From the IMG/VR virus record IMGVR_UViG_2645727970_000008: DNA of 15,836 nt; one strand, 5' to 3'. Shown piece after piece: positions 8,595 through 8,844 of the stretch (position 1 is the stretch's first letter; every line of letters starts with the position of its first letter). The notes under the pieces were generated by a model. It had not been told where the DNA came from. It saw only the letters and a list, made by a program, of their open reading frames with translations, and made no database searches. A program made the translations under genes and the position numbers. The stretch comes from a virus. Lineage: Duplodnaviria > Heunggongvirae > Uroviricota > Caudoviricetes.

Positions 8595-8671
8595 TGGCGC
8601 GTTGTACTGGATTCGAACCAGTGACCGATTGCTTAGAAGGCAATTGCTCTGTCCGGCTGAGCTAACAACGC
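8595..8671 (-). tRNA. argO: tRNA-Arg (anticodon UCU)
   Basis: Reverse complement folds as a canonical cloverleaf: acceptor GCGTTGT/ACAACGC, D-arm GCTC-AGCCGGACA-GAGC, anticodon loop CTTCTAA, T-arm ACTGG-TTCGAAT-CCAGT, discriminator G, CCA end. Confidence 0.9.
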
Positions 8672-8684
8672 ATAATGCAGATAA

Positions 8685-8761
8685 TGGATTGCCATCGGGG
8701 ACCCGGGCCCCACACAGCCAGTTTCGAAAGCTGACGCTCTCTGCCGATGAGCTAATGGCGG
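8685..8761 (-). tRNA. tRNA-like sequence, possibly a degenerate or atypical tRNA-Arg (candidate anticodon UCG)
   Basis: Canonical D-arm (GCTC-ATCGGCAGA-GAGC) and a 7-nt anticodon loop TTTCGAA, but the acceptor stem has 2 mismatches and the T-loop (CCCGGGT) is non-canonical. Confidence 0.4.
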
Positions 8762-8768
8762 TATGTGA

Positions 8769-8844
8769 TGGTGGCCCTTGCTGGATTTGAACCAGCGACC
8801 TGGCGATTATGAGTCGCTCGCTCTCACCACTGAGCTAAAGGGCC
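8769..8844 (-). tRNA. ileZ: tRNA-Ile2 (anticodon CAU, ileX/ileZ type reading AUA; programs may call it tRNA-Met)
   Basis: Reverse complement GGCCCTTTAGCTCAGTGGTGAGAGCGAGCGACTCATAATCGCCAGGTCGCTGGTTCAAATCCAGCAAGGGCCACCA has a canonical cloverleaf and resembles E. coli ileX as recalled. Confidence 0.85.

Follow-up and report, generated by a model that had tools for sequence, protein, structure and literature searches.

Cluster layout and genomic context

The window analysed here, the whole stretch of 15,836 nucleotides, is a lambdoid prophage from E. coli whose late region runs along the minus strand. ARAGORN at default settings places two tRNA genes in it, both on the minus strand, Arg(tct) at 8595-8671 and Met(cat) at 8769-8844, and the Rfam tRNA model RF00005 at its gathering score of 29 returns these same two genes only. 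Because both programs call the two genes there, positions 8595-8844 correspond exactly to the outer ends of argO and ileZ. The cluster is composed as follows:

8769..8844, minus strand: ileZ, an intact tRNA-Ile2 with anticodon CAU (ARAGORN; 72.5 bits; 76/76 against phage 933W; PGAP tRNA-Ile)
8762..8768, minus strand: spacer UCACAUA of 7 nt between ileZ and the relic (sequence reading; unvarying in 33 family loci)
8685..8761, minus strand: very probably an eroded argN, a tRNA-Arg(UCG) relic of 77 nt with an encoded CCA (homology; Rfam 22.2 bits)
8672..8684, minus strand: spacer UUAUCUGCAUUAU of 13 nt between the relic and argO (identical to 933W; unvarying in the family loci)
8595..8671, minus strand: argO, an intact tRNA-Arg with anticodon UCU (ARAGORN; 70.1 bits; 76/77 against 933W; PGAP tRNA-Arg)

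The two outer genes are high-scoring canonical tRNAs and homologues of ileZ and argO of 933W, which bears out their first-pass annotation as tRNA-Ile2 (CAU) and tRNA-Arg (UCU). In the case of ileZ, the CAU anticodon presumably reads AUA after a predicted lysidine modification, and the 933W annotation of this gene states ‘codon recognized: AUA’. In the case of argO, we take the UCU anticodon to read AGA and, weakly, AGG. Position 37 of argO (window position 8634) is A within the loop CUUCUAA, and the same holds for the other surveyed alleles inspected; argO of 933W (L002, position 2818) has G37 and the loop CUUCUGA, which is unusual in a tRNA reading ANN codons. Altered forms of argO were seen at two further loci. 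At L208 (E. albertii) the gene ends after the anticodon loop and at L212 its 3' end is replaced, in both cases with unrelated sequence following, and both forms look like integration or recombination into argO.

The order of the surrounding genes was taken from Pfam and from the PGAP annotation of near-identical genomes. A genome search with the whole window yielded no identical genome, the best match being 97.5% over 95% of the window. In the listed order, the features are:

11074-11439: RusA
10523-11077: Q-like antiterminator (DUF1133/Phage_antitermQ), followed by a small ORF
8894-9943: N6/N4 DNA methylase (methyltransferase), directly upstream of the tRNA cluster
8854..8882, minus strand: putative tRNA promoter pT, TTGCAG-N17-TATTAT, overlapping the end of the methylase region (933W homology)
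7964-8095: DUF3927 ORF, after the tRNA cluster
7709-7898, minus strand: STnc100 sRNA (family match, 132 bits), with a terminator at 7739-7718
7348-7683, plus strand, opposite to the late region: iraM-like gene
5238-7103: DUF1737-SASA-DUF6645 esterase, followed by lysis genes

The cluster had initially been set between Q and the cargo. It does lie downstream of the Q-like gene, but the methylase gene intervenes between that gene and the tRNAs. The cargo downstream of the cluster consists of the DUF3927 ORF and the iraM-like gene, with no stx. The STnc100 element is located just upstream of the SASA esterase gene; in 933W, the STnc100 element follows stxB with AsxR/AgvB anti-sRNA matches adjoining, and it is on that side that the window has the iraM-like gene. 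A match to the sok antitoxin RNA (106.7 bits; 13090-13261, minus strand) adjoins an ORF of 51 amino acids (12937-13092, minus strand), which is the hokD toxin in the annotation of related genomes. Judged from sequence, the pair is a predicted hok/sok type I toxin-antitoxin module in the early region of the prophage.

Regarding transcription, the pT-like site aligns to a 933W feature annotated as ‘pT; putative tRNA promoter’ with both hexamers conserved. A consensus promoter scan did not call this site because its -35 hexamer matches at 3/6 positions only. In an Stx2a phage, these tRNAs appear to be transcribed from a mapped primary start (Sy et al. 2020, PMC7547250). The terminator scan found no terminator-like site inside the cluster. 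Altogether the homology of the promoter, the mapped start and the terminator-free cluster make it probable that the relic is co-transcribed with its neighbors.

Homology and lesions of the middle element

At default settings, neither ARAGORN nor Rfam calls the 97 nt between the outer tRNA genes. Rfam run permissively on 8660-8780 (121 nt) gave a full-model RF00005 match at 8688-8761 (minus strand) with 22.2 bits and E = 0.008, thus missing the gathering score of 29, and no Rfam family other than tRNA matched the middle element. The ARAGORN check proposed at first pass has a similar outcome: the element is missed at default, and a 77-nt tRNA-Arg(tcg) at 8685-8761 (minus strand) is called once the threshold is lowered to 95% (-ps). 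PGAP annotates tRNA-Ile and tRNA-Arg only, both in a genome 100% identical over 7000-11100 and in another one with the same allele, and this two-tRNA annotation recurs in the top complete-genome hits at 100%, 99.2% and 95.9% identity. Because annotation pipelines skip the relic, carrier genomes show a 97-nt unannotated gap between two tRNA genes.

The first-pass annotation had described a canonical D-arm, a 7-nt anticodon loop with the candidate anticodon UCG, a mismatched acceptor stem and a non-canonical T-loop, and all four can be recognized at the level of single bases. The D stem GCUC/GAGC forms 4/4 pairs, and the 7-nt anticodon loop UUUCGAA, with U33, holds the anticodon UCG at 8727-8725. 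The anticodon stem consists of three Watson-Crick pairs, one G·U pair and one C·A mismatch (C31·A39). In the acceptor stem, with its 3' strand AUGGCAA at 8695-8689, C1·A72 and C2·A71 are unpaired, and these two mismatches are common to 8/8 alleles of the window-allele family described below. The T stem has 5 pairs and encloses the T-loop CCCGGGU (8707-8701), where 933W has UUCGAGU and intact alleles have UUCAAGU. In the D-loop, AUCGGCAGA, C replaces G19; a D-loop of 9 nt with A20, the typical layout in tRNA-Arg, was presumably present in ancestral argN. As a whole, 18/21 stem pairs are formed, versus 21/21 in argN of 933W and in other canonical alleles. Single-sequence MFE folding was non-discriminating: the relic came out cloverleaf-like with z = 0.10, and the optima of intact argN and argO are themselves non-cloverleaf.

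The likeness to the ileZ-argN-argO cluster of Stx phages, also claimed at first pass, extends across the whole cluster when aligned to that of 933W. For this cluster of the Stx2 phage, the 1999 work of Plunkett et al. is reportedly the source. In 933W all three genes are annotated and called by ARAGORN, argN as Arg(tcg). Between the window and 933W, ileZ is identical at 76/76 positions and argO at 76/77 (the sole difference being A37 versus G37), and the spacers are essentially identical. The middle element aligns to argN of 933W in syntenic position and gap-free, with 64/77 identical positions, 13 substitutions, no indel and a shared UCG anticodon, so that the alignment with argN suggested at first pass was confirmed. 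The changes of the relic relative to 933W argN are:

G71 to A and G72 to A: pairs 2-71 and 1-72 broken
G39 to A: pair 31-39 broken
C27 to U and C49 to U: wobble pairs left
U63 to C: pair improved
C32 to U
Variable region: two changes
D-loop: two changes, including G19 to C (in the numbering fitting tRNA-Arg)
T-loop: U54 to C, U55 to C and A58 to G

Overall, the window resembles 933W (AF125520) in gene order and strand logic, with the cluster following the late-regulator region and preceding the cargo, in the near-identical ileZ, argO and spacers, and in the conserved pT-like hexamers. It differs in three respects: argN scores 22.2 bits in the window and 54.8 bits in 933W, the window cluster is preceded by a DNA methylase gene, and the cargo is stxAB in 933W but DUF3927 plus the iraM-like gene in the window. 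The window allele is absent from the deposited phage genomes in INPHARED, where the best match reaches 89.3%.

The Rfam tRNA model was used to score the middle-slot alleles of related prophages, which gave the following series:

L025, canonical: 56.0 bits
L002, canonical (933W): 54.8 bits
L035, canonical stems, T-loop with G58 (UUCGGGU): 54.0 bits
L003, derivative with UUU anticodon: 44.4 bits
L010, two stem mismatches and G58: 43.4 bits
L132, sister of the window allele, T-loop CUCGGGU: 26.4 bits
Window allele: 22.2 bits
L168 and L155, more eroded sisters: no match at E <= 10
L014, L029 and L021, deleted, rearranged or fused alleles: no match at E <= 10

The CUCGGGU sister, one base away from the window allele, is called by ARAGORN at default and the window allele is not, which thus stands one step lower on a visible slope. 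A standard high-confidence tRNA score, named at first pass as what would speak against decay, was not obtained for the middle element with Rfam (22.2 bits, versus 54-56 bits in intact alleles).

These results bear on two alternatives. The first is that an intergenic spacer resembles a tRNA by chance. A score that stays below threshold would agree with this, but the gap-free 64/77 match to argN, in syntenic position and between identical flanks, and the graded intermediates leading to canonical alleles speak against it. Chance resemblance was rejected on account of the homology to argN, and we regard it as practically negligible.

The second alternative is a tRNA-Arg(UCG) which, though non-canonical, is functional and still serves the prophage in decoding CGA/CGG. 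The element retains U33 in its UUUCGAA loop, the D stem, a T stem of 5 bp, the length of 77 nt and a genomic CCA. It also falls just below threshold, being accepted by ARAGORN at 95% and in its one-base sister at default, and Rfam matches it over the entire model (local search, E = 0.008). Furthermore, the allele is widespread, with 87 E. coli complete-genome records at >=95% identity, including ETEC H10407. On the other hand, the elbow of the tRNA L-shape is made by G18·U55, G19-C56 and U54·A58, positions that hardly vary among bacterial elongator tRNAs, and the window-allele substitutions at G19, U54, U55 and A58 affect two or more of these contacts. Moreover, C1·A72 and C2·A71 open the acceptor end, and EF-Tu binds more weakly to a tRNA with a mismatch at 1·72, of which initiator tRNA is an example. 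Together with the gap of 22.2 bits to the 54-56 bits of intact alleles, with sister alleles in which G18, the CCA and a further four stem pairs have gone without compensation, and with the deletion or wrecking of the slot in many lineages, this leads us to consider a functional tRNA improbable.

Variation of the middle slot

Relatives of the window allele were collected from viral contigs with a 15-mer from the relic, which also drew many unrelated hits; 35 IMG/VR loci with argN context were kept (37 including the window and L001), representing 8 distinct alleles. Further changes within this family are G18 to A, C25 to U (wobble left), U/C at position 27, U/C at position 55 and CCA to CUA, and in single alleles A29 to U, G42 to A, G51 to A and G52 to A each break a pair. 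Of the cells in the family cloverleaf, 82.7% are paired, with three pairs missing from every allele and four more broken in single ones. Neither compensatory double changes or stem covariation nor indels were found among the 8 family alleles. In 28 better-preserved alleles, 98.5% of cells are paired, a value biased because the set was picked for few mismatches, and compensatory double changes, which are real, occur at 4 pairs.

Variable sites were counted at the 33 family loci whose flanks were long enough. ileZ has 0/76, 18 of its bases having served as extraction anchor; the relic has 8/77, argO 1/77 and the spacers 0/21. Comparing the relic with the two tRNAs (8/77 versus 1/153) gave a Fisher p of 0.0008, or 0.0002 without the 15 baited bases, although these tests overstate independence because the compared loci are mutually related. 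The difference between the relic (8/62 unbaited sites) and the spacers, which are short, was non-significant (p = 0.19). The outer flanks of the family loci are mosaic. The first-pass annotation had left the choice between a decaying tRNA and an unusual functional one, and it is the former that is favored by the score of 22.2 bits, the silence of PGAP, the loss of G19, U54, U55 and A58, and the uncompensated erosion in sister alleles.

To describe the slot beyond this family we used our first and less biased sample, consisting of 120 IMG/VR loci collected with the 3' end of ileZ as bait. Nucleotide diversity was 0.009 in the unbaited part of ileZ, 0.043 in argO, 0.186 in the middle slot, and 0.13 and 0.21 in the two spacers, the slot thus matching the spacers in variability. 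The slot is occupied by 53 distinct alleles. Among about 120 clusters, ARAGORN calls the middle tRNA as Arg(tcg) in 65 and as Lys(ttt) in 16, and gives no call in 37, so that about 30% of the sampled clusters are without an ARAGORN-callable middle tRNA. The slot has been lost through at least five types of lesion, recorded in these forms:

Point decay of the window-family type
A form of 101-102 nt with the anticodon arm replaced, the commonest dead form
A form of 81 nt with a deletion in the anticodon arm
Single-base (1-nt) deletions
Fusion of argN and argO
Truncations

In the dead allele of 101-102 nt (L013, L019, L023, L029, L211 and about 25 other loci), AGACGACACGAUAACAGGGUUGUUGGUG replaces the anticodon arm and the T-loop is GGCGGGU; this allele still folds with a 7-bp acceptor stem and a T stem. 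The hybrids L049 and L086 combine its 5' half with a canonical T arm, implying recombination between alleles. In L021, L048 and L094, a deletion running between both anticodon loops has fused argN and argO into one chimeric, non-callable tRNA-like gene.

The slot is present in 2,527/5,426 complete E. coli genomes. Records >=95% identical to the window allele amount to 87 complete E. coli genome records, ETEC H10407 among them, and in 983 further records the best match falls in the 60-80% class only, most of them with two PGAP tRNAs. The allele of 101-102 nt is probably the class of about 79% identity within these 983 records. Among GTDB species representatives, the cluster is limited to Escherichia and Shigella, barring hits in three assemblies whose labels name other taxa; the full cluster is present in two of these.

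Downstream stxA/B were found at 8/40 IMG/VR loci with a canonical or near-canonical middle tRNA versus 0/72 with an eroded or wrecked one (Fisher p = 0.0002, with related loci counted as independent and prophage intactness not factored in).

The variability of the slot raises the question of a tRNA-like RNA with a job outside translation, either as an RNase P/RNase E processing module for ileZ and argO or as a decoy for tRNA nucleases. It would fit such a role that the element is exactly 77 nt long and indel-free across the family, that the coaxial acceptor-T stem is largely retained, also in the 101-nt dead allele with its 7-bp acceptor and T stems, and that the cluster moves as a unit through mosaic flanks. 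Both spacers are invariant in the family, which a processing role of the whole unit would explain too. However, other prophages have ileZ and argO with a slot of 81 nt or with the slot fused into argO, and at one locus only 2 nt separate ileZ from the next tRNA gene. Since the slot can be shortened, fused or near-absent, a processing module appears unnecessary. Likewise, the variability of the relic (8/62) is not significantly unlike that of the spacers, no stem shows covariation, and the only Rfam matches are to tRNA. We therefore give a non-decoding module little chance.

At several loci, other anticodons are found on an argN scaffold that shares its acceptor, D arm and T arm with the usual form (L007, L044, L046, L003, L206 (E. 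coli), L209 (Shigella), L008 and L030). One UUU form has the loop CCUUUAA (C33) with compensatory changes in the anticodon stem and scores 44.4 bits; a second UUU form has the loop CUUUUAU and one compensated acceptor pair; a UCU form results from the single change G36 to U. In clusters of the UUU type, Thr(tgt) and Gly(tcc) come next in place of argO. These non-UCG forms look like anticodon remodelling of a phage tRNA. A broader reading could be built on them, in which the middle slot is a fast-evolving tRNA-like module, comprising one scaffold with UCG, UUU and UCU anticodons and cloverleaf-like non-decoding forms, including that of the window. Such forms might be retained either as scaffolds for processing or, where host nucleases attack tRNAs, as decoys or replacements. 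We assign this reading a slim likelihood.

The probable argN relic and the decoding needs of the prophage

Altogether, we consider it very probable that the middle element is an argN pseudogene, a non-functional relic between two tRNA genes under selection; what is left beside the alternatives discussed belongs to chance resemblance and to readings not considered here. The element shares with tRNA pseudogenes in general a clear homology to a functional gene, disabling changes at invariant positions, and a variability that exceeds that of the neighboring functional tRNAs without compensatory changes. It differs from them by residing inside a compact, otherwise functional operon and by keeping its exact length, a situation in which the relic is probably still transcribed.

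As to how the cluster would work, the outer genes may supply decoders of the rare AUA and AGA codons to late and cargo genes of the phage. The relic is probably still co-transcribed with ileZ and argO from the pT-like promoter. Its substitutions are predicted to open the top of the acceptor stem, to break one pair of the anticodon stem and to remove the elbow contacts between D-loop and T-loop. The RNA would then probably be unable to fold into the L-shape accepted by RNase P, ArgRS, EF-Tu and the ribosome, and would remain uncharged; the excised piece would be degraded. That the relic persists at exactly 77 nt is most readily accounted for by its being wedged between spacers of 7 and 13 nt, where few deletions would spare the selected neighbors or the processing sites.

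Codon usage offers a possible background for this loss. In stxA2, AUA accounts for 15/20 Ile codons and AGA/AGG for 8/24 Arg codons, and only 5 codons are CGA/CGG. In the window, the iraM-like ORF uses AUA for 6/13 Ile codons and the genes make modest use of CGA/CGG, codon counts overall being not decisive. Several coordinates taken over from a related genome gave no clean translation and were left out of the counts. E. coli reads CGA and CGG with ICG and CCG tRNAs. The host isoacceptors of tRNA-Arg are ICG, CCG, UCU and CCU, and E. coli is not known to have one with UCG. Accordingly, argN can be regarded as a phage-specific addition, and because host tRNAs already read CGA and CGG, it would be the least needed of the three. 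The dispensability of tRNA-Arg(UCG) follows from the many lineages that have deleted or wrecked the slot. Strongly constrained ileZ and argO, next to an argN that has repeatedly been lost, thus fit with scarce host decoders of AUA and AGA/AGG and with heavy use of these codons by the cargo.

The ileZ-argN-argO cluster and its rationale are textbook knowledge for Stx phages, and a decayed argN allele would count as a tRNA pseudogene. No description of argN decay was found in the searchable literature, which mostly does not include older subscription papers. The addition made here is modest: a hypervariable middle slot, its repeated independent loss, one scaffold with three anticodons, and stx-linked alleles that are canonical or near-canonical. 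In terms of scale, the unannotated gap concerns at least 87 complete E. coli genome records (at >=95% identity), and many more through other dead alleles. Of the three tRNAs of lambdoid and Stx phages, strong constraint is thus seen on the AUA and AGA decoders only, and argN, the decoder of CGA/CGG, is dispensable and has been lost repeatedly. All stx-linked clusters sampled nevertheless keep a canonical or near-canonical middle tRNA, and this pattern bears on which phage tRNAs matter for the expression of toxin and late genes.
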